A stretch of 64,000 bases of DNA from Kiritimatiellia bacterium. Its GTDB lineage: Bacteria > Verrucomicrobiota > Kiritimatiellia > RFP12 > UBA1067. Positions 27,259 through 41,776 of this stretch are shown here, in pieces (position 1 is the first letter of the stretch; each line of letters begins with the position of its first letter). A program made the position numbers and the translations under genes. The notes under the pieces are model-generated. The model was not told where the DNA came from, did not search any database, and was given only the letters and a program-made list of their open reading frames with translations. The stretch spans positions 64,622-128,621 of the forward strand of contig JAFQYM010000015.1 of NCBI GenBank assembly GCA_017406465.1, in the 5' to 3' direction.

Positions 27259-27276
27259 CCCCCTAATTTAGTGGGG
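27259..27276 (+). promoter_or_regulatory. CCCC-TAATTTRRY-GGGG hairpin motif, copy a
   Basis: ccccctaatttagtgggg. The T of TAATTT is exactly 36 nt before the tagaat -10 (27300-27305). Confidence 0.7.
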
Positions 27277-27312
27277 TGTGAAACTCGGGGGCCCTTTGAT
27301 AGAATACGCACC

Positions 27313-28467
27313 ATGAAAAAGATAATATGCATAGCGACCATGCTTGCGGCGCTCGTTTCGCCCGCGGACATGCAGTCGGAGTGCCAGAAGCTCATTGACG
27401 ACGCGGTTGCGCGGGGCGAACAGTGCGGGGTGCAGTTCTGCGCCTACAGCCACGGAAAGAAGATCGTCGACGTCTTCGCTGGGACTCTTTCGACGCGCGA
27501 AGGAGCCGCCGCTGTCAGGGGCGATTCGCTTTTTCCGATCTTCTCGACCGAGAAGCCGCTTCTCGCGACGGCCGTGCACCGGGTGGTCGAGAAGGGGCTT
27601 ATGGACTACGACAAGCCGCTCTGCACCTGGTGGCCGGAGCTGAAGGGCGACGGCAAGGAGAAGCTGACCCTTCGGGAGACGTTGGGCTACAGGACGGGGC
27701 TCCCGGGAGGATGTCCGACGCGGCTTTCCACCCACGACCTCGTCGACTGGGATCTTGTTGTCAGGGAGGCGGCCGCTGACAAGCCGGAGAAGACTCCCGG
27801 CACCGTCCAGCGCTACATGCCGTATGCCTACGCGTGGATGCTCGGGCATCCGCTTGAAGTCGCCTGCGGCAAGCCGCTCAAGGAAGTTCTCGACGAAGAG
27901 GTTCTGATTCCATCCGGAATCGAGCGCGAATTCTACTTCGTCGTCCCGCGCTCGGAATATCCGCGCGTCGCAAAGTTCTACAGAAGCATCTTCTGCGAAG
28001 TGATGAACGAGGACTGGGCGCGCGAGGCGTGTCTGCCGAGCGCGTGGGCCGTGTCGAGCGCTCGGGCGCTTTGCCGGTTCTACACGCGCCTGTGCGGATA
28101 CGACGGAAAACAGCCGCTCATCCGCCGCGAGACGCTTGACGCCGCGCTCAAGCCGTGCAGGCACGAGAGCGATCCACTGCCGTCCCCGCAGGAACTTAAG
28201 GACGACTGGCACATGATCTTCGGAATGGGCTACGGGCTCTGGGGCGAGGCAGAGAGGATGGACCGCGTGTTCGGACACGGCGGCGCAGGCGGCTCTGAGG
28301 CGCTTGTCGACCGCGACAACGAACTTGTCGTCGCCTACACCTGCAACTTCAGCCAGAACCACGACAAGCTCCGCGAGGCGCTTTACGAAGTCGTCGGAAT
28401 GCGCTGGCGGTACTGGAAAGACAAGAAGAGTCTTCAGGACCTGCAGATGAAAACTGCCGGCAAGTGA
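27313..28467 (+). CDS. serine hydrolase, beta-lactamase/esterase (class C-like) family
   Basis: SxxK motif in IFSTEKPL. 384 aa with a signal-like N-terminus. Confidence 0.75.
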   Translation: MKKIICIATMLAALVSPADMQSECQKLIDDAVARGEQCGVQFCAYSHGKKIVDVFAGTLSTREGAAAVRGDSLFPIFSTEKPLLATAVHRVVEKGLMDYDKPLCTWWPELKGDGKEKLTLRETLGYRTGLPGGCPTRLSTHDLVDWDLVVREAAADKPEKTPGTVQRYMPYAYAWMLGHPLEVACGKPLKEVLDEEVLIPSGIEREFYFVVPRSEYPRVAKFYRSIFCEVMNEDWAREACLPSAWAVSSARALCRFYTRLCGYDGKQPLIRRETLDAALKPCRHESDPLPSPQELKDDWHMIFGMGYGLWGEAERMDRVFGHGGAGGSEALVDRDNELVVAYTCNFSQNHDKLREALYEVVGMRWRYWKDKKSLQDLQMKTAGK

Positions 28468-28471
28468 CAAT

Positions 28472-28490
28472 CCCCCCTAATTTAGCGGGG
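28472..28490 (+). promoter_or_regulatory. CCCC-TAATTTRRY-GGGG hairpin motif, copy b
   Basis: cccccctaatttagcgggg, 4 nt after the upstream stop. The T of TAATTT is 36 nt before tacaat (28514-28519). Confidence 0.7.
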
Positions 28491-28525
28491 TTCAACTCAA
28501 TTAAACCATTTGGTACAATAGCGAC

Positions 28526-30241: not shown

Positions 30242-30282
30242 AGTTGAAAGGTTGAAAAGTTGAAAGGATGAAAATGGTTAAA
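30230..30282 (+). repeat. C-free GTTGAAAG array
   Basis: gtgaagaagtaaagttgaaaggttgaaaagttgaaaggatgaaaatggttaa: 53 nt with no C, spanning the junction of the two GH paralogs. Confidence 0.85.
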
Positions 30283-32049
30283 CAATCTATGAAAGCAGGC
30301 ATTGGAATTCATCTCGCGGCAGTTCTTTGCTGTGCGGCTTCTGTCGCGGCAAGAGCTGACTTCGCAATTGACGTAGACATGTCCGCGGACACGATCAAGG
30401 ACGTCCGCACGTCGACATGCGGGCCGGAGGTCGGCTACGCCGGGTGCAACTTCCCCATCGACGGACCGAACGAGCCGGCCGACACATACTGGTTCAAGAC
30501 GCGCGCGGCCGACACCTCCCGCGCGATGCGCGAGGCGGGCGCGTGGTTCCAGCGCATGTGGAACGGCGGCGACTGGTTCGCCCACCGTCTCCCGCCGGAG
30601 GAGTACCGCAGGAAGTGGAACATCGACGACGAGACGTGGAAGAAGAAATTCCGCCGGTACGAGCGGACCGACCCCGCCGCCGCGTTTGCGTTCTGGAAGG
30701 CGAACGGCTTCAAGGTGCTCTTCACGCTCGAAGCCTGGGGCGCCGAGAGGTCGAAGAAGGAAATCATCGAGCTTGTCGACTACATCGTCGCCAACCACTA
30801 CGAGGACGTTGTCGCCGGCTTTGAGCTCGGCAACGAAAGCTACTACTCGAAGGACTACGCCTCGCTCGCGCCCGTCTGGTGCGAAATAATCCCCGAGATC
30901 AAGAAGCGCATGCCGAAGGTGAATCTCGGCATCAACCTCGCCGAGCTCTTCGAGCTCAATCCCGACATCACGCAGGTACGAAACCGCATGCTCGCCGCTG
31001 GCGAGATCAAGCGCGACACATACTTCGCCGCAGGTGACTTCAACCGCTATTCGGCGCAGTTCGTGACGGCGATGTCGAATTGCATCAACCAGATCACACA
31101 CGTCATCTACCATGCCTATGGCGCGGAGACGCCCTACAGCTGCTCCTACTACGGGTTCCAGCGCTTCCGCAATTTTCTTCAGGCGTTCCCCGAACTCAAG
31201 GGGAAGAAGATGTGGCTCAGCGAGGTTCGTCCGCGCTCCGACGAGGACAACTACTGCCAGCGCATCTTCCGCGAGGCGCTTATAATGGCGCACTACTCGA
31301 TGATGGCGATCTGCCAGCCGGACATGGACGGCTTCAACCATCATCAGATCTATGCTATTTCCGGCGGCATCTACCAGTCCGACGGAAAGAACTGGCGCAT
31401 CCAGTGGCGCGACGCAGGGCGCGAATACGTCGACTGGCGCGCGCCGATGGGCGAGCCGCGGCTTGAGGTCGGCGCGTGCGGCGTCATGTACCGCATCCTC
31501 GCGGAGGCGATCAAGGAGCATCCGCTCGTCCTGCGTCACGGCACTTCGAAGGAGGCCGACACCGAAGATGCGTTCTTCACCTCGGCGCGCGTGACGGACC
31601 AGATCTACGCCCGCCGCCGCGCGCTCAAGGAGGGCAAGTCCGGGTGGAGCGTCCCGAAGGTCGAAGGCGAGGTCGAGTGGGTCGCGCTTGCCGACGTGCA
31701 CCGCAACGAGCTGTGCCTGCTGATGGTGAACACCAAGTCCGAGCCGGTCAAGGTGAAGCTGACGGCGCGCGGCAAGGTCAAGAACGAAGTCAAGGCCAAG
31801 GAGTTCGCCGCGCCGACCTACCGCACGCTGAGCTGCCCGGAGAAGTTCCTCGACTGCCGCGCCGTGCCGGGCGAGGGACACCCCTGGACGCAGATGAGCT
31901 GGGAGGACACGCAGGCGGGCTACGCCGCGATTCCGATGGCGGCCTACGAGGGCATGAAGCCCGCCGCATCCGTGCTTACGGTCGAAATCGCCCCGCATAC
32001 GGTGCAGTCCGTGACCGTCCTCCTGCGCAACGCGCCCGACGGCAAGTAA
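30268..32049 (+). CDS. secreted glycoside hydrolase, clan GH-A-like, family unclear (paralog 2)
   Basis: GFELGNESYY and MWLSEVRP sit at positions equivalent to paralog 1. Signal peptide present. Confidence 0.6.
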   Translation: MKMVKQSMKAGIGIHLAAVLCCAASVAARADFAIDVDMSADTIKDVRTSTCGPEVGYAGCNFPIDGPNEPADTYWFKTRAADTSRAMREAGAWFQRMWNGGDWFAHRLPPEEYRRKWNIDDETWKKKFRRYERTDPAAAFAFWKANGFKVLFTLEAWGAERSKKEIIELVDYIVANHYEDVVAGFELGNESYYSKDYASLAPVWCEIIPEIKKRMPKVNLGINLAELFELNPDITQVRNRMLAAGEIKRDTYFAAGDFNRYSAQFVTAMSNCINQITHVIYHAYGAETPYSCSYYGFQRFRNFLQAFPELKGKKMWLSEVRPRSDEDNYCQRIFREALIMAHYSMMAICQPDMDGFNHHQIYAISGGIYQSDGKNWRIQWRDAGREYVDWRAPMGEPRLEVGACGVMYRILAEAIKEHPLVLRHGTSKEADTEDAFFTSARVTDQIYARRRALKEGKSGWSVPKVEGEVEWVALADVHRNELCLLMVNTKSEPVKVKLTARGKVKNEVKAKEFAAPTYRTLSCPEKFLDCRAVPGEGHPWTQMSWEDTQAGYAAIPMAAYEGMKPAASVLTVEIAPHTVQSVTVLLRNAPDGK

Positions 32050-32102
32050 GTAATGCGATTGGCGTGGATGCTGCCGCGGTACAAGACGGGCGGCGAGACA
32101 GG

Positions 32103-32143
32103 AAATGTCGGCTATTTGGCAGTCTTGGAAATAGCCGACATTT
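32103..32143. terminator. AATGTCGGCTAT hairpin H1 (T-tailed, palindromic, bidirectional terminator-like)
   Basis: aaatgtcggctatt-tggcagtcttgga-aatagccgacattt followed by t. Confidence 0.65.
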
Positions 32144-32210
32144 TGCCATTGCGCGTCAGCACCCATTTTTCAGCTTCTACCGATCAAGCCCTCGTTCGAG
32201 CGCCGAATTT

Positions 32211-32477
32211 AACTCCGATCAGCAGGGCTCTCGCTACCGCTCCGCAGAATTACGTTTGCTTCGCATCCTTCATTCGCGTCTCGCTGAGCGACGTATGTAG
32301 GCTTTGAGCTGGAGGAGGTCTCCTCCAGGCCTCCTCTGGCGTGCATGGATTGGCTGTCATGTCTTCTAACCCTGCCGAAGGCAGCTCAAGAAGACAATTC
32401 GACGCACTGAATTGCCGTTGAGACATCGCGAAGCTGCGGAGCGGTAGCGGGAGCCCTAACGCTCGGAGTTTCTTTTT
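32211..32477 (+). ncRNA. candidate structured RNA or MITE-like element bounded by a 37-nt imperfect inverted repeat
   Basis: IR-L 32211-32247 and IR-R 32434-32470 pair over 8+6+1(G-U)+16 bp. Internal perfect hairpins are ctggagga-ggtc-tcctccag (32309-32328) and tgtcttct...ctgcc-gaa-ggcag...agaagaca (32360-32396). A T-run tttcttttt follows. No credible ORF. Confidence 0.5.
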
Positions 32478-32588
32478 GCAGGAGAAAAATGCCCATTCCA
32501 CTTGCGAAAGCGCACATCACCCCTTATTCATCGAGGTGAGATGCACTTTGGCGGTCAAAAAATGGGTAAACTCCAGTAGGGCAGGGGA

Positions 32589-32618
32589 TTGACAATAGTC
32601 CGCCTGTGGGCGTATAAT
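32589..32618 (+). promoter_or_regulatory. near-consensus sigma70-type promoter
   Basis: TTGACA (32589-32594), an 18-nt spacer, then TATAAT (32613-32618). The ATG is 8 nt downstream and there is no SD. Confidence 0.7.
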
Positions 32619-32626
32619 ATGCGCCG

Positions 32627-33304
32627 ATGAAGCGGATTCTCTATCATGGGTCGAAGGACAGGATTGTAAAGCCGTTGTTCGGGGCGGGGCGCCTCAACAA
32701 CGACTATGGGCGTGGTTTCTACTGCACTGAGAGCGAGGATCTTGCAAAAGAGTGGGCCGTTGCCAACGATCACGACGGATGGGCGAATGTCTATTCACTT
32801 AATGACGACGGTTTGAAAGTTCTCAACTTGAATTCGAATAAATACTGTCTTCTTCACTGGCTCGCAGTTCTGCTGGAGAACCGCCAGTTTGAAACAGAGT
32901 ATGGACTGCCTTTGGAGGCCAAGGCGTACCTGACAACGCGATTTGCCGTCCCGTACAAAGAAGCGGACGCCATCATCGGCTATAGAGCGGACGACAGCTA
33001 CTTTACCTTTGCCCAGGACTTCATATCGGGAGCGATTTCCTATTCGCAGCTCGCGTCCGCAATGCGTCTTGGTCATCTCGGAGACCAATATGTCCTCAAA
33101 AGCCGGAAGGCTTTCGGCAGAATTAGGCATATCGAATCGCGGCCTGCGCTGCGCTCCGAATGGCTTGAGCGCAAGAGCGCCCGTGACCATGCCGCGCGTC
33201 AGGAGTACCTGAGCGCATTGAGGCATCAGAGAGTGCCAGGAGATTTGCGCATCGACCGCATAATCGACGAGGAGATAGGACCTGATGACGAACGCCTACG
33301 ATAG
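32627..33304 (+). CDS. DUF3990-like protein with PARP/ADP-ribosyltransferase-like motifs (putative toxin)
   Basis: MKRILYHGSKDRIVKPLFGAGRLNNDYGRGFYCTE ... DAIIGYRADDSYF. The HGS ... GxGFY arrangement parallels the PARP H-Y-E fold motifs. Family name is from memory. Confidence 0.6.
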   Translation: MKRILYHGSKDRIVKPLFGAGRLNNDYGRGFYCTESEDLAKEWAVANDHDGWANVYSLNDDGLKVLNLNSNKYCLLHWLAVLLENRQFETEYGLPLEAKAYLTTRFAVPYKEADAIIGYRADDSYFTFAQDFISGAISYSQLASAMRLGHLGDQYVLKSRKAFGRIRHIESRPALRSEWLERKSARDHAARQEYLSALRHQRVPGDLRIDRIIDEEIGPDDERLR

Positions 33305-33932
33305 AGCGTATCTTCTGCATGCCCGGCAGTCGCTCGGACGTATGCTGGATTTCTCCTGCCATGTCTTAGGATATTCTGCAAGAGGTTTTTGGGATTTGTT
33401 TCTTGCCTCGGGCGTTGCCGCGTCATTCGGGAAAGGGGACGCGCATTTCATTGCCGGCATGAGCGGGTATGAACTCGCCTACGAGGTCCTTGAACGCTGT
33501 GGGGTGAAGTTTAGTCGCGTCGTCGATCCTTCGCCTCCAGACGGAAAGTCCCCGGAGTTCTGGGCGGCATGGTCCGTCGCCCATTATCAATGGTTCAGGG
33601 GGCTGTCCTTCGCACGCATAGACGCGTTCGCCCCGATAGACGACATCGTGGCGATGTATCATCCATATCACGAGATGGACATCTCGCGGTTCTGCGACGA
33701 GATGGACAGGCTTTACCGGCTGAAGTATCCCGAACGGAATCTGCAGCGCATCCGGCGTAGCATCAACTTGAGCCAACGCGACCTTTCCGAACGCTCCGGC
33801 GTGTCGATAAGGACGATACAGGAGCTTGAGCAGGGTCGAAAGGACATCAACCGTGCGGGTATAGACACGCTTATGCCGCTTGCCGCCGCGCTTTCCGTTG
33901 ACGTTGAGTCCCTTGTTGAGCGAGTTGTATGA
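33285..33932 (+). CDS. DUF3791-like domain fused to a C-terminal XRE-type HTH (putative antitoxin/regulator)
   Basis: Overlaps the upstream gene by 20 nt. C-terminus NLQRIRRSINLSQRDLSERSGVSIRTIQELEQGRKDIN is an XRE HTH. The N-terminal domain is homologous to ORF 40242-40655. Confidence 0.6.
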   Translation: MTNAYDRAYLLHARQSLGRMLDFSCHVLGYSARGFWDLFLASGVAASFGKGDAHFIAGMSGYELAYEVLERCGVKFSRVVDPSPPDGKSPEFWAAWSVAHYQWFRGLSFARIDAFAPIDDIVAMYHPYHEMDISRFCDEMDRLYRLKYPERNLQRIRRSINLSQRDLSERSGVSIRTIQELEQGRKDINRAGIDTLMPLAAALSVDVESLVERVV

Positions 33933-33975
33933 CCCTTGTCTGGAAGTGGTGAAAGGCATCCGCCTGTTTCAGTAG

Positions 33976-33996
33976 CCCCCCCCTAATTTGATGGGG
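33976..33996 (+). promoter_or_regulatory. CCCC-TAATTTRRY-GGGG hairpin motif, copy c
   Basis: cccccccctaatttgatgggg. The T of TAATTT is 36 nt before tagaat (34020-34025). Confidence 0.7.
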
Positions 33997-34053
33997 TGGG
34001 CGGTTCGGGCGGATTGTGGTAGAATATTCCCAAAATCGTAAAAGGATTCTGCC

Positions 34054-35283
34054 ATGATGACTTCGAAAAACAACAGGTCTTTAGTGTGTCTTCGCGCTGT
34101 AGCGCTTCTTTTCGGCACGTTTTTCCTTGCGGTATTACCCGTGCGCGCCGAAAACAACTGGACCTACTACGCCGCCGGCGCTGACGGCAATCCGACGGAC
34201 GCCGCCTGCGTTGTCCACGGCGAGTGGATCATCAAGACCAATGCCTCTGGCACGAACCCCGCAAATGGAGTACTTTGGCTTGACCTGATCGTTTCCGCAC
34301 CGGCGGACGGGATTCTCGACTTGCGCGACGTCGTTCTCGTCGGGACTAACGGCAAAACCGTACTCGACAATGTCCCTGTGACGAGTATGAGACTTCCCAG
34401 CAACAATAGCAAGGGCTGGGATTCCGCCAATATTGTTGAAGTCTATGCGAACAACCTTGCCGACTACGGTGAACCGTTCGGACGCAGCGGCGCGGCCAAC
34501 ACCCGTCTCATGCATCTTGCCAGCAAAACGATGACGGCAGTCACCGGCCGCTTCTGCAATCTCACGAACCTCGTCCTGAACATGCCGAATGCGACGGCCT
34601 GGAGTCCTGGCGGTTTCCACAACTGCTCGCTCACGAATGACATCGCCGAAATCGTCCATCCCTGGCTGCGGACGATTGGGAACAACATGAGCTCACTTGG
34701 CGCGGGCGTGACCGGGACGCTTGTCCTCACGAATGTGTATGACTGCGGAAACCAGGGTTTGTTTCCGGCCGGGGTTTCCGCGGGGCGCTTCGTGTTCAAC
34801 GGTACCGACTTCCAGTCGCAGCCCTTCCGCGGCGCGACGGGGCTGAGGGACTTCGAGCTTGTCGCGCCCGTCTGCACCAACTTCTACCTCGGCTACAACA
34901 GCAGCAACGTAACCAACATAGTTCTCGACGCGCCGCTCGTCATATCTACGCACAACAAGACGCAGCTGCCGCTGGTTCCGGCGGCGAAGTCGTCCGTCTG
35001 GTTCAAGAACGCCGCGCTCGGCATTGACGTGGTGCGGGCGATGGTTTCGGGCGTGACGGCCGTCGCCGCGAGCAAGAACCAGGACAAGAACTGCACGATC
35101 TACTGCTCGAAGAGGATGGGGTGGAAGGAGCTCGCCTCGCCGCTTGAGGGCGACTATGAGAGTGAGCTTGCGCCGGAAGGTTGCTTTGGCGTTCTCGTCG
35201 ATGCTAGCGGCAACCGCCGCGCATGGATGGTCCACCGTGCATCCCCGTATGACAAGAGCGGGCTGATGATTTTCGTGCGGTGA
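34054..35283 (+). CDS. secreted hypothetical protein, possibly BspA-type leucine-rich repeats
   Basis: Signal peptide LRAVALLFGTFFLAVLPVRA. Repeated N-rich segments (NLTNLVLNMPNATAW, NCSLTNDIAEI). C-terminus ends SGLMIFVR. Confidence 0.45.
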   Translation: MMTSKNNRSLVCLRAVALLFGTFFLAVLPVRAENNWTYYAAGADGNPTDAACVVHGEWIIKTNASGTNPANGVLWLDLIVSAPADGILDLRDVVLVGTNGKTVLDNVPVTSMRLPSNNSKGWDSANIVEVYANNLADYGEPFGRSGAANTRLMHLASKTMTAVTGRFCNLTNLVLNMPNATAWSPGGFHNCSLTNDIAEIVHPWLRTIGNNMSSLGAGVTGTLVLTNVYDCGNQGLFPAGVSAGRFVFNGTDFQSQPFRGATGLRDFELVAPVCTNFYLGYNSSNVTNIVLDAPLVISTHNKTQLPLVPAAKSSVWFKNAALGIDVVRAMVSGVTAVAASKNQDKNCTIYCSKRMGWKELASPLEGDYESELAPEGCFGVLVDASGNRRAWMVHRASPYDKSGLMIFVR

Positions 35284-35323
35284 TGCGGTAGGCGGACAGC
35301 ATGAGAATGGCGTTGTTGCCTAT

Positions 35324-35362
35324 AATGTCGGCTATCATTGATTTTCCCGCATAGCCGACATT
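35324..35362. repeat. AATGTCGGCTAT hairpin H2
   Basis: aatgtcggctat-cattgattttcccgc-atagccgacatt followed by tt. Confidence 0.65.
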
Positions 35363-35376
35363 TTGTAGCCCATGAT

Positions 35377-35419
35377 AAAATGTCGGCTATTCTGTGATTT
35401 GCGGAATAGCCGACATTTT
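35377..35419. repeat. AATGTCGGCTAT hairpin H3
   Basis: aaaatgtcggctatt-ctgtgatttgcgg-aatagccgacatttt. Its right arm starts a 31-nt block (35405-35435) identical to 32130-32160. Confidence 0.65.
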
Positions 35420-35458
35420 GCCATTGCGCGTCAGCGCGAAATATGATATAGTGCACGT

Positions 35459-36904
35459 ATGAAATTCATTGGAAGAAGCGAGTATCTTGATAAACTCTCC
35501 GCCTTGTGGGAAAAGAAGCGGAGCTCCTTCGCCGTCGTGTCCGGACGCCGCCGAATCGGGAAGTCGACTCTGGTCGAGGAGTTCGCACGACGCTCGGCCT
35601 GTGATTTCATAGAGATTGTCGGGTTGCCGCCGGATAAGACCATGACTAACCAGCGTCAGATAGATAACTTCTGCGAGCGGCTTGCAAGGGCGGCCAAGAA
35701 GCCGGAAGCCAAGGCCGACTGCTGGCCAAAGGCGTTCGATGCGCTCCATGAAGCGATTCATCCCCGGCGTAAGACAATTGTGTTTCTCGATGAAATATCA
35801 TGGATGGGGCGCTACGACGGAGCCTTTGCCGGATTCCTCAAGACGGCATGGGATACGCAGCTGTCGCTGCACGACAATCTGATACTTGTCGTCGCCGGGA
35901 GCGTCTCGGCCTGGATCCAGGCAAATGTCCAGCGTTCAAAGGCGTATGTCGGAAGGATCTCCCTTGACATAACGCTGCCCGAACTTTCTCTGTCCGAATG
36001 CCGCGCGTTTTGGGGCAGAAAGGCGGATCGGACGGCGACGCGCGAGATACTTGACGTGCTGTCGGTGACGGGAGGCGTTCCGAAATACCTTGCCGAAGTC
36101 AATCCGTCGCTGTCTGCCGACGAGAACATCCGGCGGCTATGCTTCGATCCGGATGGATATCTGTTCAAAGACTTCAATCGCATATTCGACGACGTGTTCG
36201 ATGAGAGCGTCGCCGCCAAGAAGCGAATCGTCACGGCGCTTGCCGACGGCCCGGCGAGCATTGCGGAGCTTGCGGAGCGGATCGGCGTGCAGTCAAGCGG
36301 ACATATTTCATCGGATGTCTCCGATCTCGTGCAGGCGGGTTTTGTCGCCGGTGCACGGGGGAAGAACCCTGGCACAGGACGCGATGTAAGAGAGGTAAGA
36401 TACAGGTTAAGGGACAATTACACGCGTTTTTACCTTAAATACATCCAGCCGAAATCCGAAGCCGTCAGAGAAGGCATGTTCCGCTACGTGTCGCTGGAGC
36501 GTCTTCCGAACTGGAACTCCATAATGGGTCTCCAGTTCGAGAACCTTGTCCTGAACAATTTCCATACACTCGCCAGACGCATCGGACTCGTAGGCAAGAG
36601 CGTGGAATCCGTTGCGCCATACTTCAGGCGTGGACGCAAGGCCGGCGACGGAGTGCAGATAGACATGCTTGTCCAGCTCCCGAAAAGCGCTTATTTGGTG
36701 GAAGTGAAGCGAATGAACACCATCCCCGTTGCCGTGGAGCAAGAGGTGCAAAGGAAAATCGACCGCCTCCCGTTGAAAAAAGGGATGTCCGTAAGAACGG
36801 TGTTGGTCTACGACGGGGAACTTGCGCCCGAGCTCGAGGAGGACGGTTTTTTCGATCATCTCGTTGGTATGGACGAACTCCTTCGTCAGAGCTGCCCCCC
36901 CTAA
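35459..36904 (+). CDS. AAA/STAND-like ATPase (archaeal-ATPase type) - wHTH - PD-(D/E)xK-like domain
   Basis: FIGRSEYLDKL ... VVSGRRRIGKSTLV (Walker A) and VFLDEISW (Walker B). wHTH IVTALADGPASIAELAERIG. C-terminus GLQFENLVL ... VQIDMLV ... LVEVKRM. TATAGT lies 6 nt before the ATG. Confidence 0.75.
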   Translation: MKFIGRSEYLDKLSALWEKKRSSFAVVSGRRRIGKSTLVEEFARRSACDFIEIVGLPPDKTMTNQRQIDNFCERLARAAKKPEAKADCWPKAFDALHEAIHPRRKTIVFLDEISWMGRYDGAFAGFLKTAWDTQLSLHDNLILVVAGSVSAWIQANVQRSKAYVGRISLDITLPELSLSECRAFWGRKADRTATREILDVLSVTGGVPKYLAEVNPSLSADENIRRLCFDPDGYLFKDFNRIFDDVFDESVAAKKRIVTALADGPASIAELAERIGVQSSGHISSDVSDLVQAGFVAGARGKNPGTGRDVREVRYRLRDNYTRFYLKYIQPKSEAVREGMFRYVSLERLPNWNSIMGLQFENLVLNNFHTLARRIGLVGKSVESVAPYFRRGRKAGDGVQIDMLVQLPKSAYLVEVKRMNTIPVAVEQEVQRKIDRLPLKKGMSVRTVLVYDGELAPELEEDGFFDHLVGMDELLRQSCPP

Positions 36905-36913
36905 TTTGATGGG
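36895..36913 (+). promoter_or_regulatory. CCCC-TAATTTRRY-GGGG hairpin motif, copy d
   Basis: ccccccctaatttgatggg. It contains the ATPase stop codon TAA (36902-36904). The T of TAATTT is 36 nt before tataat (36938-36943). Confidence 0.7.
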
Positions 36914-36949
36914 ATATGAAATCAACGTGTCAACTGATATAATAACAAT

Positions 36950-37954
36950 ATGAAAATGAAATTCGCTATGTCTGCCGCGGCGCTCGCTGCCGCGTTTGTT
37001 GCGCCCTCTGCGGGAGGTGCCGCCAAGGCAAAGGACGTTCCGCTTCTGCTCGCTACCGATGCAGGGAAGGTTGTGTCCAATGCGCAGAAGGGGGCGGACG
37101 AGATCGTCCTCTGCGACCAGCTTAAACAGACAATTGACATCTACAGCGCAGAAGGTTTGAACGTCTGGCGCTGGTGCGCGAAGGACGATCCTGGCATTGC
37201 CGGCGGGGACAAGGGCGGTTTCATGAACAATGTCGCGGAATCGAAGCCGTTCGCGGGCGGGTCGAAGATCGGCATGGTGTCGTGCGGCGGACGCTGGGCG
37301 GTGATCGACCGGGCTGCACACAAGGTCACCGCGTGGGGCAGGTGCAACGGCTGGGCGCACTCCATCGAGATGGTCGGGCCGGACGTCGTGGCCGTCGTCT
37401 CGACCGGCGGTACAGGCGGCAATTCGCTGTTTCTTTTCGACATCCGTGGCGACATGGCGATGAATCCGTACAGGCAGAAGAAGTCCACTCTCCAGTTCGA
37501 CTCTCCGCACGGACTCCACTACGACGGCAAAAACCTCTGGCTCGTCGACACTCTCGGACTCCACCGCTGCTCGATCTCGCGCGATGCGGAAGGCGTCCCT
37601 GTCGCGAAAGTCGAGAAGACGTGGCCGTTCTCGGAACTCGGTGTCACACACGGACATGACCTTCGCCCAGTGCCGTGCACAAACCTGCTCGCCATGACGA
37701 CGCACGAGAAGGTGCTGTTCTTCGACATGAAGACGGAGAGCTGGCGGGAGGATATGTTCATTGAAAGGCAGGACGTCAAGGCGTTCGACCCGGCGCCTGA
37801 CGGGAAGTCGTTCCTTGTGACGACGGCGAAGACGAAGTGGTGGACCGATTCGCTTGAAATCTGCACTTTCGGGGGCAAGGGCGTAAAGACGACGTTCGCG
37901 CCGTCTCTCGTCATCCTCGGAGCGAAGATATATAAAGCCCGTTGGGTGAAGTGA
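36950..37954 (+). CDS. secreted hypothetical protein (beta-propeller-like)
   Basis: Signal peptide MKMKFAMSAAALAAAFVAPSAGGAAKA. Ends KIYKARWVK. No catalytic motif recognised. Confidence 0.45.
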   Translation: MKMKFAMSAAALAAAFVAPSAGGAAKAKDVPLLLATDAGKVVSNAQKGADEIVLCDQLKQTIDIYSAEGLNVWRWCAKDDPGIAGGDKGGFMNNVAESKPFAGGSKIGMVSCGGRWAVIDRAAHKVTAWGRCNGWAHSIEMVGPDVVAVVSTGGTGGNSLFLFDIRGDMAMNPYRQKKSTLQFDSPHGLHYDGKNLWLVDTLGLHRCSISRDAEGVPVAKVEKTWPFSELGVTHGHDLRPVPCTNLLAMTTHEKVLFFDMKTESWREDMFIERQDVKAFDPAPDGKSFLVTTAKTKWWTDSLEICTFGGKGVKTTFAPSLVILGAKIYKARWVK

Positions 37955-37982
37955 TGCCGCCATTATTCGCTCAGTTTCGACA

Positions 37983-38000
37983 CCCCGCAATTTGACGGGG
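37983..38000 (+). repeat. CCCC-TAATTTRRY-GGGG hairpin motif, degenerate copy e
   Basis: ccccgcaatttgacgggg, 28 nt after the upstream stop. Not at the fixed distance from a -10 box. Confidence 0.55.
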
Positions 38001-38035
38001 TTTGCCCATCAGGATTCTTTTCGGCAGACTGCGTG

Positions 38036-38065
38036 TTGACGGAGTCATCTTGAATGCGCTATAAT
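38036..38065 (+). promoter_or_regulatory. sigma70-type promoter
   Basis: TTGACG (38036-38041), an 18-nt spacer, then TATAAT (38060-38065). Followed by a 50-nt 5' UTR containing agcaacc ... ggttgct and a cgtggtt direct repeat. Confidence 0.6.
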
Positions 38066-38115
38066 ATAGCAACCGTGGTTACAGTAATCGTGGTTGCTAA
38101 ATAAGGGTTTGAACA

Positions 38116-39435
38116 ATGAGGTTTTTCGACAGGGCATCCGAACTCGCCGATTTAAGGGAGATTCGCAAGCGCAGCGAAGACGTTGCGCAGTTCACCGTTG
38201 TGACTGGTCGCAGGCGGGTAGGCAAGACGTCGCTGGTGATGAAGTCGATGGAGGGCGAGACGTACGTCTATCTCTTCGTTGAGAGAAAAAGCGAGAAGGA
38301 CCTTTGCGAGACGTTCGCGAGGGAGATCAACGAGAAACTTGGCGACGTGATGCTGGGCGTGCCGGAGAGATTCGAGGACATATTCGGCGCGCTTATGAAG
38401 CTTGCCGCCACTCGCCATCTGAATGTCGTGATCGACGAGTTCCAGGAATTCCGCAAGATAAGTGTCGGCATTTTCTCGTCGATCCAGAAGCTATGGGACC
38501 TTCACAAGGGGAAGGCGCGCATGAACCTGATCGTGACGGGCAGCGTGAATACGCTTATGGTCAGACTTTTCCGAAACCGTCGCGCGGCGCTGTATGGAAG
38601 GGAGACGGCCTTCATGGTTGTAGAGCCGTTTGCCACCGATGTATTGAAAGAGATAATGGAGGCCTACCATCCTGGCTACAGGCCGGAGGACTTGCTGGCT
38701 CTGTGGACGTTTACCGGCGGCGTCGCCAAGTACGTTGAGCTGCTGGTCGACTCCAAAAGCTGGACGCGCGAGTCCATGATAAAAGAGATCGTCCGGGCGA
38801 ACTCGCTTTTTCTCGACGAGGGGCGTGCGGTTCTTGTCGAGGAGTTTGACAAGGAATACGGCGTCTACTTCTCGATTCTATGTGCCATCGCACGCGGCAA
38901 GACGTCGAGAAACGAGATAGAGCAGACGGTCGGCCGCCAGGTAGGTGGATATCTCGCGCGCCTCGAGAACGACTATGCCCTTATCCGCAGGCATCAGCCG
39001 ATTTTCGCCCGGGCCGCCGCGAAGACGACAAGGTACGAGCTCAACGACCGGTTTCTCGTTTTCTGGTTTCGTTTCATGTACCGCTACAGCTACATACTCG
39101 AACTCAAGGGCTATGAGCAGCTGCGCGAAATAATAAGGAGGGACTATCCCGTCTTCAGTGGCCATGCGCTGGAAGAGTACTTCAGGCGCAAGTTCGCAGA
39201 GTCGGGGCAATGGACGCGCATCGGCTCGTGGTGGGATCGAAAGGGCGAGAACGAGCTGGACATGGTTGCCGAGAACGAGCTGACTGGAGAATACGCAATT
39301 TGCGAAGTAAAGAGACAGGGTGGGAAAATTGACCTCGGTTGCGTTGCAGACAAGTTTGCGGTTTTCCAACGGGCGACAGGCAAATGGCATAGGGTCAAAC
39401 CCAAGTTCCTTGCGTTGTCCCTTGCCGATATGTAA
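38116..39435 (+). CDS. AAA ATPase (archaeal-ATPase type) with C-terminal DUF234 / PD-(D/E)xK-like domain
   Basis: FFDRASELADL ... VVTGRRRVGKTSLV and VVIDEFQE. NDRFLVFWFRFMYRY is typical of DUF234 proteins. C-terminus ALEEYF ... ELDMVA ... ICEVKRQ. Confidence 0.8.
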   Translation: MRFFDRASELADLREIRKRSEDVAQFTVVTGRRRVGKTSLVMKSMEGETYVYLFVERKSEKDLCETFAREINEKLGDVMLGVPERFEDIFGALMKLAATRHLNVVIDEFQEFRKISVGIFSSIQKLWDLHKGKARMNLIVTGSVNTLMVRLFRNRRAALYGRETAFMVVEPFATDVLKEIMEAYHPGYRPEDLLALWTFTGGVAKYVELLVDSKSWTRESMIKEIVRANSLFLDEGRAVLVEEFDKEYGVYFSILCAIARGKTSRNEIEQTVGRQVGGYLARLENDYALIRRHQPIFARAAAKTTRYELNDRFLVFWFRFMYRYSYILELKGYEQLREIIRRDYPVFSGHALEEYFRRKFAESGQWTRIGSWWDRKGENELDMVAENELTGEYAICEVKRQGGKIDLGCVADKFAVFQRATGKWHRVKPKFLALSLADM

Positions 39436-39449
39436 AACGATTGGAGTAT

Positions 39450-39466
39450 CCCCTAATTTGACGGCG
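39450..39466 (+). repeat. CCCC-TAATTTRRY-GGGG hairpin motif, degenerate copy f
   Basis: cccctaatttgacggcg, 14 nt after the upstream stop. Confidence 0.55.
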
Positions 39467-39612
39467 TGGCATAGGGCTACTAAACGGCAAAATGTCGATT
39501 AGCGGCCCAAAACGCCGGCGGGATGTGGTATACTATCCACATGGAAAGGTTGTTCAACATCGCTGGGCCGTGCAGTCCGGCCAATCGATAGATATACGGA
39601 ATCTTAGGCGTT

Positions 39613-40251
39613 ATGCGGCTTTACCATGGGTCTAAATCGGGTTTGTCGGGAGCGATCGCCCCCGTGAGCCGCGATGTTTGCGATTTCGGGCGGGGCTTCT
39701 ACATGGGCACGGAAACCACACAGCCGATGACGCTCATTTGCCATGGTAAATCTCCGAAGTTCTATGATGTCGACTTCAACCTTGATGGATTGCGCGTCTA
39801 CCGATTTGGGCCAGATGTTGACTGGGCGATGTTTGTTGCATGGAACAGGCGGGTGATCCCAGATCGCTTCAGACCTTATTACGACGACAAGTTCCTGCCG
39901 ATAGTGCAGTCAAGTGACGTGATTGCCGGCAAGATTGCTAATGACCGCATGGTTGTGGTGTTGGATTGGTTTTTCAATGGCTTTGTATCTGATGTCGGCC
40001 TAATTATGTCGCTTCAGGCGCTTGGACTTGGCGACCAGTATTGCGCACGGACGGCAAAGGCGTGCGAACATGTGAAGATTGCAAGCGAGCGCGCACTCTC
40101 GCCCGATGAATGTGCGGCGTTGCGCATGCGCTCGGAAAGCCAGCGAACCGCAGCGGTGAAGATGGTTGACCGCATACGGCTTGAACATCGCCGTGACGGC
40201 ATGTTCTTCTCGGAGATAATCGAGAAGGCCACGGGGAGGACATGGCTGTGA
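39613..40251 (+). CDS. DUF3990-like protein with PARP/ADP-ribosyltransferase-like motifs (second copy)
   Basis: MRLYHGSKSGLSGAIAPVSRDVCDFGRGFYMGTE ... DVIAGKIANDRM. Same motif order as ORF 32627-33304. Confidence 0.6.
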   Translation: MRLYHGSKSGLSGAIAPVSRDVCDFGRGFYMGTETTQPMTLICHGKSPKFYDVDFNLDGLRVYRFGPDVDWAMFVAWNRRVIPDRFRPYYDDKFLPIVQSSDVIAGKIANDRMVVVLDWFFNGFVSDVGLIMSLQALGLGDQYCARTAKACEHVKIASERALSPDECAALRMRSESQRTAAVKMVDRIRLEHRRDGMFFSEIIEKATGRTWL

Positions 40252-40655
40252 CGCTCGATGTCTTTCAGATGCAGCAATGCGAAAACCAAGGACGTCTATT
40301 CGAGAGCCTTGACAGGCGGGATATCGATGCCAAGGCGTTCATCAAGGCGTTCATGAATTCGCGGGCGGCGGCCGGGCTTGATTCGACGTTCGACCATTTC
40401 CAGTGGGCTGGCAACGAATACATCTACGAAGATGTCGTGGAGGAATTCGGTCTAAAGCCGATGCCGAACCCGCCGCGCTACAATACTGAAGCGCTTTACT
40501 ACGCCGGCTATATTACGCGTTATTGGCACTACCTTACAGGAGAGACCTCGAAGCAAATCTATGCCCAATGCGACGAAACTCGGCTTTTGCAGTGCTACGG
40601 CTTCCATTCCGAGTCAAATGAGATGGCCATCGCGGACATCAGGGCCGGTAGATAG
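40242..40655 (+). CDS. DUF3791-like protein (second copy, no HTH)
   Basis: Overlaps the upstream gene by 10 nt. The shared pattern W.G..Y ... Y..W ... G.S ... Y..HE aligns with the N-terminal domain of ORF 33285-33932. Confidence 0.55.
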   Translation: MAVTLDVFQMQQCENQGRLFESLDRRDIDAKAFIKAFMNSRAAAGLDSTFDHFQWAGNEYIYEDVVEEFGLKPMPNPPRYNTEALYYAGYITRYWHYLTGETSKQIYAQCDETRLLQCYGFHSESNEMAIADIRAGR

Positions 40656-40674
40656 CCCCTCCTAATTTGAGGGG
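40656..40674 (+). promoter_or_regulatory. CCCC-TAATTTRRY-GGGG hairpin motif, copy g
   Basis: cccctcctaatttgagggg, 1 nt after the upstream stop and 32 nt before gagaat (40695-40700). Confidence 0.55.
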
Positions 40675-40705
40675 TTGTCAAGCAAACGAAGTAAGGAGAA
40701 TGGGA

Positions 40706-41776
40706 ATGACACGCAAGGACTTCATTGGCGGGGTGGCAGCTTTTGCCGCGGCGGGTGCATTCGGCGCGAAGGGCGCGACGGATTCGCCGCAGCTCGCCGC
40801 GACGAAGAAGTGGTTCAAGGAGGCGCAGTTCGGAATGATGGCGCACTGGGGGCTTTACACGCTTCCCGGCGGCGAGTGGAACGGAAAGCCAGGCCGCCGC
40901 GCCTACGCGGAGTGGCTGCAGTGGGGCGAACGGATACCGTTGAAGGAGTATGCCGCGCTCGCCAAGGCGTTCAATCCCGTCCTCTTCGACCCGAAAGACT
41001 GGATGAAACGCGCTCGCGACGCCGGCATGAAGTATTTTGTCATCACCTCGAAGCACCACGACGGTTTCGCAATGTTTCGCTCGAAGGCGTCGAAGTACAA
41101 TGTCGTCGACGCGACGCCGTTTGGGCGCGATCCGCTCGAGGAGATCGCAGAGGCGTGTCGCGACACCGGCATCCGGCTCGGGCTCTACTACTCGCAGGAC
41201 CTCGACTGGAGCGACCCGGACGGCGGCGGCAAGAAGAACGAGGCGGGGCTCAAGAACTGGGGCAACGAGGACTGGCGCAACACGTGGGATTGGCCGGCGG
41301 ACCGCGACTATGACTTCTCGCGCTACTTCGAGCGCAAGTGCAAGCCGCAGGTAAAGGAGATATTGACGCAGTACGGCGACTTGTGCCTCATCTGGTTCGA
41401 CGTGCCGTCGACGATCCTTCCCGCGCAGTGCCAGGAGCTCAAGGACATGGTACGCGCCTACCAGCCAGGATGCCTCATCAACGGCCGGCTTGGCTACGGG
41501 CTCGGCGACTACTCTACGCCCGGCGACAACTGCATCGCGGAGAAGACCGAGGAGGGTGCGCTCTACGAGACGGTCGGCACGATGAACGACTCGTGGGGTT
41601 ACCGCCCGACCGACACGCACTATAAGAGCGTAGACGAAATCCTGGCGATAAAGGCGAAGTGCGCGTCGATCGGCTCCAACTACATGCTGAATGTCGGGCC
41701 CGATCCGCTCGGGCGAATTCCCGTCGCCGGCATCGAGATACTCAACGGCCTTGCCGCTGCCGCAAGGCGTTCGTAG
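40706..41776 (+). CDS. alpha-L-fucosidase (GH29)
   Basis: AQFGMMAHWGLYTLPGGEW and KYFVITSKHHDGFAMFRS are typical GH29 motifs. TRKDFIGG is a Tat-like (R-K) signal. Start is 40700 or 40706. Confidence 0.85.
   Translation: MTRKDFIGGVAAFAAAGAFGAKGATDSPQLAATKKWFKEAQFGMMAHWGLYTLPGGEWNGKPGRRAYAEWLQWGERIPLKEYAALAKAFNPVLFDPKDWMKRARDAGMKYFVITSKHHDGFAMFRSKASKYNVVDATPFGRDPLEEIAEACRDTGIRLGLYYSQDLDWSDPDGGGKKNEAGLKNWGNEDWRNTWDWPADRDYDFSRYFERKCKPQVKEILTQYGDLCLIWFDVPSTILPAQCQELKDMVRAYQPGCLINGRLGYGLGDYSTPGDNCIAEKTEEGALYETVGTMNDSWGYRPTDTHYKSVDEILAIKAKCASIGSNYMLNVGPDPLGRIPVAGIEILNGLAAAARRS

Follow-up and report, generated by a model that had tools for sequence, protein, structure and literature searches.

A probable strain-variable recombination hot spot carrying candidate toxin-antitoxin and defence modules in a glycan-degradation cluster of ruminant-gut Kiritimatiellia

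Introduction

The DUF3990 family belongs to the ART clan of Pfam (PMC7955679) and has been described as the toxin domain at the C-terminus of an Rhs effector of the T6SS, which has an immunity gene downstream (PMC4524185). Candidate defence systems are collected in the PDC entries of PADLOC, which are guilt-by-association candidates and include PDC-S27, in which an ATPase is joined to a PD-(D/E)xK domain (PMC12988326). Both kinds of protein are encoded in an 8.6 kb block within the window analysed here, a 64 kb stretch of DNA from a Kiritimatiellia bacterium.

This block is a mosaic of separately acquired modules, not one island. It is probably a strain-variable recombination hot spot in a chromosomal glycan-degradation cluster (GH-GH-...-GH29) of ruminant-gut Kiritimatiellia, with four self-promoted modules interleaved in it; for two of them we infer an ART-toxin/partner mechanism. 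The accessory modules, independently acquired, are two pairs of DUF3990 and DUF3791-superfamily genes and two single-gene ATPase_2-wHTH-DUF234 proteins. All four are candidate toxin-antitoxin or phage-defence systems from families already catalogued as defence candidates. The block also holds a left-truncated MITE and a leftover hairpin/promoter end of the cassette of one ATPase.

Results and Discussion

Table 1. Features of the block and their positions in the window.
Feature	Position	Strand	Details
GH 3' flank with H1, then TTTTGCCATTGCGCGTCAGC	32050..32165	+	truncated copy of ATPase1-cassette 5' end (hairpin and -35 region)
MITE copy	32166..32587	+	family consensus ~427 nt; right terminal repeat AAAAAATGGGTAAACTCCAG intact
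Promoter of pair 1	32589..32618	+	TTGACA-18-TATAAT; 12/12 consensus match
DUF3990a, ART-fold candidate toxin	32627..33304	+	Pfam DUF3990 1.6e-41; PADLOC PDC-M42A 9.4e-41
Pair 1 partner, candidate antitoxin/autorepressor	33285..33932	+	all-alpha DUF3791-superfamily N-domain and XRE-type HTH
Best CCCC-TAATTTGA-GGGG copy	33976..33996	+	21 nt upstream of extended -10 (TGGTAGAAT)
Secreted 409-aa protein, family-less	34054..35283	+	signal-peptide-like N-terminus; GC3 0.761
ATPase1 cassette	35291..37000	+	H2, H3, promoter, gene 35459-36904, motif copy at 36895
Secreted DUF6528 protein	36950..37954	+	Pfam DUF6528 1.6e-12; GC3 0.773
Third segment extra relative to L012	37955..40744	+	ATPase2, pair 2, three motif copies; 53 nt in L012
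CCCC-TAATTTGA-GGGG copies in third extra segment	37984, 39450, 40659	+	
ATPase2	38116..39435	+	ATPase_2 5.7e-16; DUF234 4e-10; PDC-S27 2.2e-44; ELDM...CEVKR motif
16-codon mini-ORF	39541-39591	+	ORF present
DUF3990b	39613..40251	+	Pfam DUF3990 2.1e-25; PADLOC PDC-M13B 1.5e-17
137-aa DUF3791-related partner of pair 2	40242..40655	+	family matches to DUF3791

Structural variation and composition of the block

The preliminary description had placed an accessory block between two CAZyme genes, and synteny bears this out, since the GH directly adjoins GH29 in the more distant relatives L001, L004 and L018. The closest relative, L012 (~93% nucleotide identity), has the order GHb-pair 1-secreted protein-DUF6528-GH29, tightly packed without spacers, and is devoid of window segments 32049-32583, 35296-37014 and 37955-40744; deletion could have produced this compact state. 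Further structural variants are found in L225, L227/L346, L347 and L348. The relatives hold different subsets of the block, with pair 1 and the host genes in L012, pair 1 and ATPase1 in L227, and ATPase1 only, beside the GH, in L347, which implies at least four separate gains. The arrangement of the window itself recurs in 13 contigs from several samples at 99.8-100% identity. Since every relative is represented by a MAG or metagenome contig, chimeric assembly could account for some of the junctions.

The lower GC content that had been noticed by eye was confirmed by computation (0.558 in the block vs 0.600 in the rest of the window). The six DUF3990, partner and ATPase genes have a low GC3 of 0.62-0.73, compared with 0.76-0.87 in host genes; flanking genes range from 0.81 to 0.86, and the two secreted-protein genes are host-like (0.76-0.77). 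The original proposal, in which one genomic or defence island was gained en bloc at a site between GH and GH29 and is bounded by repeat hairpins, accommodates the reduced GC of the whole block and the co-orientation of all units between two CAZyme genes that are neighbours in distant relatives. Nevertheless, it is very improbable, because L012, L227 and L347 carry subsets of the block, two of the genes inside it have a GC3 like that of host genes and form an operon with GH29 in L012, the hairpins are part of the ATPase1 cassette alone, and the CCCC-TAATTTGA-GGGG repeat is also present outside the block. In agreement with the earlier reading, an integrase or transposase was sought in the annotated parts of the window and none was found. 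The separately acquired modules would move between strains and phyla, and within the locus recombination, not a resident integrase, would reshuffle them.

The two DUF3990 pairs

All plus-strand ORFs listed previously were recovered at their coordinates, including the overlaps of 20 nt in pair 1 (33285-33304) and 10 nt in pair 2 (40242-40251), and the pairs show the toxin-antitoxin-like anatomy ascribed to them. The Pfam searches likewise upheld the DUF3990, XRE-HTH and ATPase_2/DUF234 assignments, and identified the propeller-like gene as DUF6528. The motifs H-G-S, G-x-G-F-Y and A-x-D are invariant, also between the two DUF3990 paralogues of the window. The AF2 model of DUF3990a (GC3 0.624) has a pLDDT of 92, and almost all of its top PDB matches have ART folds, including PARP1, diphtheria toxin and the toxin-antitoxin toxins MbcT and ParT; these matches are weak (E 0.03-1, TM 0.3-0.5), and the catalytic acid was not assignable.

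The partner proteins had been called DUF3791-like, a label that holds through homologue and profile matches but not through direct search, as neither window protein matches Pfam DUF3791. For pair 1, the profile of the N-domain of the partner (215 aa) aligns with the DUF3791-related family A2 (hhalign, 95% probability, E 1.7e-8), and for pair 2, Pfam DUF3791 is matched by 13 of the partner's 22 homologues (best 5.8e-7; the partner itself has 137 aa); matches of both partners to PDC-M42B are marginal (6e-4 and 1.3e-4). The 215-aa protein also matches Pfam HTH_3 (6.5e-8), and in its model (pLDDT 90) the C-terminus resembles the HTHs of C.AhdI, SinR, DdrO and HipB, while the N-domain has no match in the PDB.

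The two pairs are only 25% identical to each other and the two ATPases 22%; accordingly, they are not duplicated modules, contrary to what had been supposed. The consensus promoter of pair 1, conserved in L012 and L227, ends 8 nt 5' of the ATG, which would yield a near-leaderless mRNA, and the XRE HTH of the partner would repress this promoter. The 16-codon mini-ORF upstream of pair 2 does exist, but is without support and is missing from one pair-2-type module elsewhere, where the upstream gap is just 77 nt.

A full-length DUF3990 gene lies immediately 5' of the partner gene in 73 of 80 related genome loci, spanning Kiritimatiellia, Lachnospiraceae, Oscillospiraceae, Spirochaetales, Desulfovibrionaceae and others, and in 21 of 23 loci from IMG/VR. 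The overlapping genes for DUF3990 and its partner thus make up a module that is conserved across phyla and is found on viral contigs as well. Five loci (L228, L268, L273, L284 and L285) retain an intact partner but have lost the DUF3990 gene wholly or in part. Each DUF3990 protein would be an ART-fold, NAD+-using toxin, and the translationally coupled all-alpha partner would bind it directly and keep it inactive. If the partner were lost or titrated, as might happen when a phage infects the cell or the locus is lost, the toxin would be released, producing toxin-antitoxin or abortive-infection behaviour.

The ATPases

ATPase1 combines a Walker A/B ATPase, a wHTH and a PD-(D/E)xK-like C-terminus with an IDML...VEVKR motif, read from the translation. 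It matches PADLOC PDC-S27 (4.5e-80) and Pfam ATPase_2 (8.5e-11), with weak matches to HTH_20, MarR_2 and DUF234, and its GC3 is 0.672. Its promoter (TTGCCA-18-TATGAT, 10/12 consensus match) overlaps the tail of H3. The 1.7 kb cassette occurs in three contexts: L227 and L346 carry it at 96-98% identity in surroundings unlike those of the window, and in L347 ATPase1 comes after a divergent GH. ATPase2, with a promoter matching the consensus at 11 of 12 positions, lies in the third extra segment, whose genes have a GC3 of 0.63-0.73. Both ATPases keep the Walker A/B and D...ExK motifs. They would be DNA-binding proteins that are driven by ATP and end in a PD-(D/E)xK nuclease, and they would serve as stand-alone sensors or cleavers of nucleic acids. 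A third ATPase of this kind (PDC-S01) is located 11 kb upstream, with trp/phe and GH genes around it.

Genomic contexts and candidate functions

The PADLOC search supports the suggestion of candidate defence families, with matches in the block to PDC-M42A/B, PDC-M13 and PDC-S27 (twice). The block has no validated defence gene, and all of these assignments are computational candidates; a toxin-antitoxin or defence role of the modules is plausible. Elsewhere, the contexts of the pairs vary, including sugar genes, a transposase, ComEC, and thiamine and histidine genes, among which pair-2-type modules sit without an ATPase. In L214 the pair adjoins AraC, GH10 and beta-helix genes, and one homologous pair adjoins a strain-variable McrBC/HEPN/ADP-ribosylglycohydrolase island.

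These contexts bear on two further interpretations. The pairs and ATPases might be purely selfish modules, of the addiction or 'junk' type, or else decaying ones, persisting by post-segregational killing or drift without protecting against phage. Their frequent isolation among housekeeping or sugar genes, the toxin-truncated copies, the position of the PDC-S01 ATPase and the reported poor association of PDC systems with other defence loci (PMC13356809) are consistent with this possibility. However, we consider it unlikely, given the pair beside the McrBC/HEPN island, the presence of pairs on (pro)viral contigs, like many defence 'morons', and the window copies, in which every ORF and catalytic-type motif is intact. 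Alternatively, the XRE fusion and the wHTH-ATPases could regulate nearby glycan genes, with DUF3990 as a regulatory ADP-ribosyltransferase, forming a metabolic control unit. The HTH domains in both protein types and the location of modules within CAZyme clusters here, in L214 and in L227 would suit such a role. It is nonetheless highly doubtful, since the varied neighbourhoods and viral contigs in other phyla offer no constant metabolic partner, ATPase1, ATPase2 and pair 2 are all missing from L012, which runs the GH29 operon, and the GC3 of the modules is foreign-like.

Host genes of the glycan locus

Unlike the candidate toxin-antitoxin or defence modules, the 409-aa protein and DUF6528 belong to the normal complement of the glycan-degradation cluster, DUF6528 being linked to GH29. 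Although they had been counted within a defence island, their host-like GC3 and their packed operon with GH29 in L012 assign them to the CAZyme locus. The 409-aa protein has no Pfam family, and the 'LRR-like' label was dropped after no LRR match appeared even at E<=5. It shares 55% amino acid identity with its L012 orthologue, the ends being conserved, and is replaced in L227 by GH28-like and metallophosphatase genes. The DUF6528 gene, whose promoter matches the consensus at 10 of 12 positions plus TG, lies immediately 5' of GH29 in L012 and L006. The gene starting at 40706 matches Pfam Alpha_L_fucos. For the gene at 30268-32049, the call as a GH paralog comes from an 'ELGNE' motif resembling that of clan GH-A, recognised by eye, with no Pfam or NCBIfam match. 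A promoter for nearly every unit had been proposed; consensus-like sites precede pair 1, ATPase1, DUF6528 and ATPase2.

Hairpins, MITE and repeat motif

Hairpins H1 (32103-32143), H2 (35321-35365) and H3 (35376-35420) are indeed real, forming one repeat family (3 matches vs 0.01 expected) with strong folds (z -4.9 to -8.2; H1, -6.3). In the GH flank that carries H1, 58 nt are 84% identical to 35378-35435; this segment is missing from L012, L225 and L227. In L347, the GH flank, H1 and an H3-type hairpin lead straight into the ATPase1 promoter and gene.

The structured element described as bounded by inverted repeats does contain a 37-nt inverted repeat (32211-32247/32434-32470) and folds (z -6.9), but it is a MITE, matching no Rfam family. 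Alignment of the family revealed 20-nt terminal repeats and 8-9-bp target duplications, with a canonical length of 426-427 nt in seven copies; the left terminal repeat of the window copy is without its outer 9 nt. A 24-mer from the arms matches 41 stretches, all from Kiritimatiellia, Kiritimatiellaeota or 'Lentisphaerae' MAGs or unlabelled rumen RUG MAGs.

The view that repeat families separate the units conflated the H hairpins with the unrelated CCCC-TAATTTGA-GGGG motif. The latter has seven plus-strand copies between 27259 and 40675 (7 matches vs 0.04 expected) and none elsewhere in the window; the copies at 27259 and 28472 fall outside the block. It forms a weak hairpin or none (z -2.5 and +0.4). 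Rather than marking the boundary of an element, the motif is a promoter-proximal feature of the host locus, and other Kiritimatiellia (L020, L021) also have it upstream of their GH29 genes.

Gene Content and Genomic Setting

The components of the block between GHb, the second of two paralogous GH-A-like genes (GHa and GHb), and the GH29 fucosidase gene are new members of catalogued candidate defence families, together with a MITE. The eight forward-strand ORFs, the three hairpins (H1–H3) and the gene overlaps (20 nt in pair 1, 10 nt in pair 2) reported in the preliminary description are all present, and Pfam assigns DUF3990 twice, ATPase_2 with DUF234 twice, HTH_3, DUF6528 and Alpha_L_fucos. 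No support was found for the LRR-like character once given to the 409-aa secreted protein, and comparative support for the proposed mini-ORF was absent. An NCBIfam search returned generic HTH matches only, and when DUF3990a, ATPase2 and the 409-aa and DUF6528 proteins were compared by sequence with the PDB, no meaningful match came back. The lower GC content suspected for the block is real (0.558, against 0.600 for the remainder of the window). By GC3, its genes fall into two classes: both DUF3990 genes, their partners and both ATPase genes (0.62–0.73), and the genes for the 409-aa and DUF6528 proteins (0.76–0.77), with flanking genes at 0.81–0.86.

The surroundings consist of ordinary chromosomal genes. 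On the GH29-distal side lie the trp operon, a PDC-S01-type ATPase gene, a GH2 gene, a two-component system, a beta-lactamase-fold gene, GHa and GHb; after GH29 come asd, an MFS transporter gene, tRNA-Arg, tyrS, lptF/G, lpxA, dnaB and clpB. The best relatives of the GH29 gene occur in Kiritimatiellia MAGs from ruminant guts, and metagenome scaffolds from several samples are identical to the window. No integrase, transposase or other recombinase was seen in the annotated window. A tRNA-Glu(CTC) called by ARAGORN was considered as an integration target and rejected; the call lies inside a HisKA_3 kinase ORF, Rfam at the gathering threshold is silent there, and it is probably a false positive. Located 11 kb upstream of the block, with a chorismate mutase/prephenate dehydratase gene on one side and the GH2 gene on the other, the PDC-S01-type gene encodes an AAA_14 and DUF4143 protein (PADLOC match 1.1e-88) and is a third ATPase-type defence candidate.

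Features of the locus and of related loci (positions refer to the window unless a locus is named)
Feature	Position	Remark
PDC-S01-type gene	20912-22063 (+)	outside the block
GH2 gene	22095-24815	upstream of the cluster
tRNA-Glu(CTC) call	26273-26345 (-)	ARAGORN
CCCC-TAATTTGA-GGGG motif	27259-40675 (+)	seven copies, all within this range
GHb	ends 32049	
Segment extra to L012	32049-32583	non-coding
H1	32103-32143	hairpin
MITE	about 32166-32587	
Structured element	32211-32477	core of the MITE
DUF3990a	32627-33304	pair 1
XRE-HTH partner	33285-33932	pair 1, 215 aa
Motif copy	33976	before host gene
409-aa secreted protein	34054-35283	
Segment extra to L012	35296-37014	H2, H3, ATPase1
H2	35321-35365	hairpin
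H3	35376-35420	hairpin
ATPase1	35459-36904	
Motif copy	36895	before host gene
DUF6528 gene	36950-37954	
Segment extra to L012	37955-40744	ATPase2 and pair 2
ATPase2	38116-39435	
DUF3990b	39613-40251	pair 2
Partner 2	40242-40655	pair 2, 137 aa
GH29	from 40706	
409-aa protein homologue	L012 7765-8962	
DUF6528 remnant	L225 10690-10795	27 codons
Signal-peptide swaps and gene remnants	L227 9180-9240 and 10900-11000	
MITE TIRs with IS110-family gene inside	L323 154-2238	JAZOAC010000074.1
Partly deleted MITE	L348 3440-3480	compared with 32235-32446
Orphan partner with DUF3990 fragment	L228 9646-10648	
Pair with variable upstream region	L221-L223, L224, pair at 7340-8648	
Pair-1-type and pair-2-type modules together	L292 5977-7273 and 15355-16372; L241 8736-8969	

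Comparison with Related Strains

In three relatives (L001, L004 and L018), with GH29 72–86% identical, a GHb-type gene directly adjoins GH29, so at that depth all that separates the two genes counts as accessory. The closest relative, RUG14632 (L012, ~93% nucleotide identity), has the order GHa, GHb, DUF3990a (99% amino acid identity), its partner (98%), a homologue of the 409-aa protein (55%), DUF6528 (93%) and GH29 (96%), the last three genes packed head to tail, and the window holds three segments in addition. Further arrangements were found elsewhere. L225 carries pair 1, the DUF6528 remnant and then the GH2 gene that in the window lies upstream of the cluster. The same GH2 gene is involved in L227 and L346. 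There, pair 1 is followed by GH28-like and metallophosphatase genes, then by a remnant of the DUF6528 3′ end and by the ATPase1 cassette (96–98% identical); next comes a fusion in which DUF6528 supplies the start codon and signal peptide and GH2 the mature part. A divergent GHb precedes H1, an H3-type hairpin and ATPase1 in L347, and H1, a partly deleted MITE, pair 1 and remnants in L348.

The relatives carry different subsets, which makes the region a mosaic hot spot rather than a single island. The preliminary description is mostly right as an observation. Its single toxin-antitoxin (TA) or defence island is right only in part: the accessory status and the candidate defence families stand, whereas synteny, suggested there as a check, speaks clearly against unity, with two host genes among the modules. 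The ATPase1 gene was found in three contexts and behaves as a cassette of 1.7 kb. With only 25% identity between DUF3990a and DUF3990b and 22% between ATPase1 and ATPase2, the two DUF3990 genes and the two ATPase genes represent separate acquisitions and not duplications. Movement within the locus would proceed by recombination between strains, with no resident recombinase. The locus illustrates, in a poorly studied phylum, candidate defence genes and MITEs invading Kiritimatiellia operons without such enzymes.

In-frame signal-peptide swaps and gene remnants occur in the relatives L225, L227 and L346. The 409-aa protein stands apart in the comparison with L012, its 55% identity contrasting with 93–99% for neighbouring genes; the first 176 nt are 96% and the 3′ end 78% conserved, with a middle part that is ~73% identical or unalignable. 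To judge from this sequence pattern, this may be a surface protein that diversifies or recombines.

The Repeated Motif and a Possible Role in Insertion

The motif CCCC-TAATTTGA-GGGG forms no stable hairpin on folding. Copies also precede the beta-lactamase-fold gene and GHa, the two tabulated copies before host genes lie 21 nt upstream of extended −10 boxes, and the motif recurs upstream of GH29 in two other loci (L020 and L021). In our reading, it belongs to the glycan locus as a regulatory or promoter-region motif.

A bolder reading assigns it a part in insertion. Each inserted segment in the window is followed by a fresh motif copy before the next host gene, L012 has a single copy ahead of its packed operon of the 409-aa homologue, DUF6528 and GH29, and where segments join in L225 and L227, the site is the motif or a signal peptide. 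This pattern is consistent with, and suggestive of, a possible role of the glycan locus as an integrase-free cassette slot, in which the motif and signal-peptide starts would form a recurrent recombination joint and the cassettes would carry a 3′ motif or promoter that re-drives the downstream host gene. We hold this to be improbable; if true, it would amount to a “promoter-out” design that spares an operon polar damage when selfish modules insert into it.

Integron cassette arrays offer another parallel, as they share co-oriented, unrelated small units, intervening repeats and strain-variable content with the window. The resemblance ends there and an integron-like array was rejected: the annotated window has neither IntI or another recombinase nor attC-like sites, its units are self-promoted whereas integron cassettes are promoterless, and its repeats, unlike attC, are either an upstream promoter-region motif or confined to one cassette.

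The MITE and the Hairpins

The inverted-repeat-bounded structured element, earlier listed as a unit of its own, forms the central part of a MITE. With a 24-mer taken from the inverted-repeat arms, 41 matching stretches were found, up to about a dozen per MAG, all in MAGs labelled Kiritimatiellia, Kiritimatiellaeota or “Lentisphaerae” or in unlabelled rumen RUG MAGs. Aligned copies define a ~427-nt unit (426–427 nt in 7 copies) with 20-nt terminal repeats (TIRs), CTGGAGTTTACCCATTTTTT and AAAAAATGGGTAAACTCCAG, and 8–9-bp target-site duplications (TSDs), read in L309, L314, L325, L326 and L334. The family thus shows all the marks of MITEs, being short and non-coding, with TIRs, TSDs and many dispersed copies per genome, and is ordinary, though apparently undescribed. 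A retron (msr-msd) or other ncRNA had been a competing explanation for the structured core; it was dropped because of the multicopy terminal repeats and target duplications, and Rfam, run over the whole window at the gathering threshold and over 31950-32700 in E-value mode, gave no family for the element or the hairpins.

No autonomous parent of the MITE was identified. In L323, MITE TIRs 2085 nt apart enclose an IS110-family transposase (DEDD_Tnp_IS110 and Transposase_20), which was considered for this role. IS110-family elements are not known to carry such TIRs and TSDs, so a secondary insertion into a MITE is more likely. The copy in L348 lacks exactly the ~210 nt between the internal 37-nt inverted-repeat arms, apparently through a deletion that spanned the long internal stem.

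In the window copy, the right end is intact and directly adjoins the −35 box of the pair 1 promoter. At the left end, the outer 9 nt of the TIR are missing, and the copy meets there a truncated 5′ end of the ATPase1 cassette (H1 and TTTTGCCATTGCGCGTCAGC). A simple reading of this junction is a deletion of an ATPase1-type gene that would once have stood directly after GHb, as in L347. H1–H3 are strong hairpins (folding z −4.9 to −8.2), found at the ATPase1 cassette end only, and the tail of H3 overlaps the −35 box of the ATPase1 promoter; they may be terminators or insulators, or an operator. A hairpin 15-mer scanned against genome contigs gave single chance matches in unrelated taxa, whereas a 26-mer was informative in the metagenome collection.

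Candidate Defence Families and the ATPases

Four matches to PADLOC phage-defence candidates (PDC) lie within the 8.6 kb, with the PDC-S01 gene as a further one upstream and two host genes interleaved; no validated defence system was found in the block. ATPase1 matches PDC-S27 at 4.5e-80 (model positions 3–449 of 474) and ATPase2 at 2.2e-44, near full length. Both have the PDC-S27 layout of a single protein with an ATPase and a PD-(D/E)xK part (Pfam ATPase_2 and DUF234), with Walker A/B and D...ExK motifs present. As a candidate system, PDC-S27 abounds in archaea and in MAGs from the rumen (PMC13356809, PMC12988326). Nothing notable sets the window copies apart at the family level; each is self-promoted, and ATPase1 travels with a pair of 15–19-bp hairpins. 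Both are predicted to act as stand-alone ATP-dependent DNA-binding nucleases. Exact-protein look-ups of the two ATPases returned the same strain and locus only and are therefore uninformative on mobility; relatives of ATPase2 (53% identity) also occur on viral contigs.

The DUF3990 proteins match two further candidates. For DUF3990a, the match to PDC-M42A spans the full length (9.4e-41), and the pair 1 partner matches PDC-M42B marginally (6e-4); pair 2 gives 2e-5 for PDC-M42A and a marginal 1.3e-4 for PDC-M42B, and DUF3990b also matches PDC-M13B/A (1.5e-17 and 3.4e-14). The PDC-M42 values are matches to models and not to PADLOC system rules. The two-gene organisation is shared with PDC-M42 and PDC-M13, both of which are computational candidates, but the pair 1 partner differs in its fused XRE HTH, the PDC-M42B model being 138 aa long. 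Current views are not overturned, as these families are already listed as defence candidates.

The DUF3990 Pairs as Putative Toxin-Antitoxin Modules

DUF3990 is a member of the Pfam ART clan (PMC7955679). The Foldseek matches of the AF2 model of DUF3990a (pLDDT 92) are nearly all ART folds, the TA toxins MbcT and ParT among them, and are weak (E 0.03–1, TM 0.3–0.5); the H-G-S, G-x-G-F-Y and A-x-D motifs are invariant. The partners, described earlier as DUF3791-like, merit that name at the profile level only: PF12668 is matched by 13 of 22 homologues of partner 2 (best 5.8e-7), and the N-domain of partner 1 is homologous to the partner 2 family (hhalign 95%, E 1.7e-8). The window partners themselves have no match to Pfam DUF3791 (PF12668) at E ≤ 1, nor does any of 31 partner 1 homologues. 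The partner 1 family combines a conserved all-alpha N-domain with an XRE HTH, and a DNA-binding domain is present in pair 1 only (HTH_3 6.5e-8, XRE-type structural matches); Pfam and homologue searches found none in the pair 2 partner.

The pairs have the anatomy of type II TA modules, being adjacent, co-oriented, overlapping and inherited together. A full-length DUF3990 gene stands immediately upstream of the partner in 73 of the 80 genome loci found with the partner profile, spread over Kiritimatiellia, several Firmicutes families, Spirochaetales, Desulfovibrionaceae and others, and directly upstream in 21 of 23 IMG/VR loci. As the sole indirect hint of a toxic product that its neighbour neutralises, five loci keep a full-length partner-HTH gene beside a truncated or missing DUF3990 gene, reduced to residues 105–207 in L228 and to scraps of 28–30 residues in L268 and L284, and absent in L273 and L285. 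The DUF3990 protein, a putative ART fold, would be a toxin neutralised by its coupled DUF3791-like partner, and in pair 1 the fused HTH would repress the consensus, near-leaderless promoter; release of the toxin could then lead to TA or abortive-infection behaviour.

Among known systems, DarTG, ParST and MbcTA appear comparable, each having a small ART-fold protein encoded beside a neutralising partner, a role that is putative here, and the structures that the DUF3990a model matches best include MbcT and ParT. The pairs differ from them in Pfam family (DUF3990, not DarT/DUF4433, RES or ParT), in a partner with an all-alpha DUF3791-like domain instead of a macrodomain, ParS or MbcA, and in having the toxin gene first; membership in DarTG is further opposed by a partner model without a macrodomain match. 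DUF3990 also forms the tip of Rhs5-CT, a T6SS effector toxin of Serratia marcescens with a downstream immunity gene, in a paper in which the domain was noted and not assayed (PMC4524185). The shared features are the Pfam domain and the small cognate gene that follows; DUF3990 is here a free-standing cytoplasmic protein with no Rhs or T6SS delivery part.

More than 8000 DUF3990 relatives were scored, and for the partner N-domain 1114 relatives, some fused to an HTH and others not, are found among 50%-identity cluster representatives. DUF3990 and its DUF3791-like partner make up a very large family of gene pairs, with a candidate function, in gut bacteria and the phages that infect them. The locus offers two intact, divergent pairs, mapped promoters and natural with/without strain comparisons, which makes it a convenient start for testing the idea of a new ART-type TA or abortive-infection system, and a good experimental entry point to the pair, if unsurprising to a specialist.

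Elsewhere, pairs neighbour sugar genes, a transposase with a PhdYeFM antitoxin, or a strain-variable McrBC/ADP-ribosylglycohydrolase/HEPN island, and pair-2-type modules occur among thiamine or histidine genes with no ATPase. Pair-1-type and pair-2-type DUF3990 modules, or their partners, lie 1–9 kb apart in Lachnospiraceae and Pseudoflavonifractor genomes, as they co-occur in the window. Upstream of one homologous pair (L221–L223 compared with L224), some strains carry McrBC, ADP-ribosylglycohydrolase and HEPN_Apea genes and others unrelated genes; the proximity of an ADP-ribosylglycohydrolase gene to an ART-like gene may merit attention.
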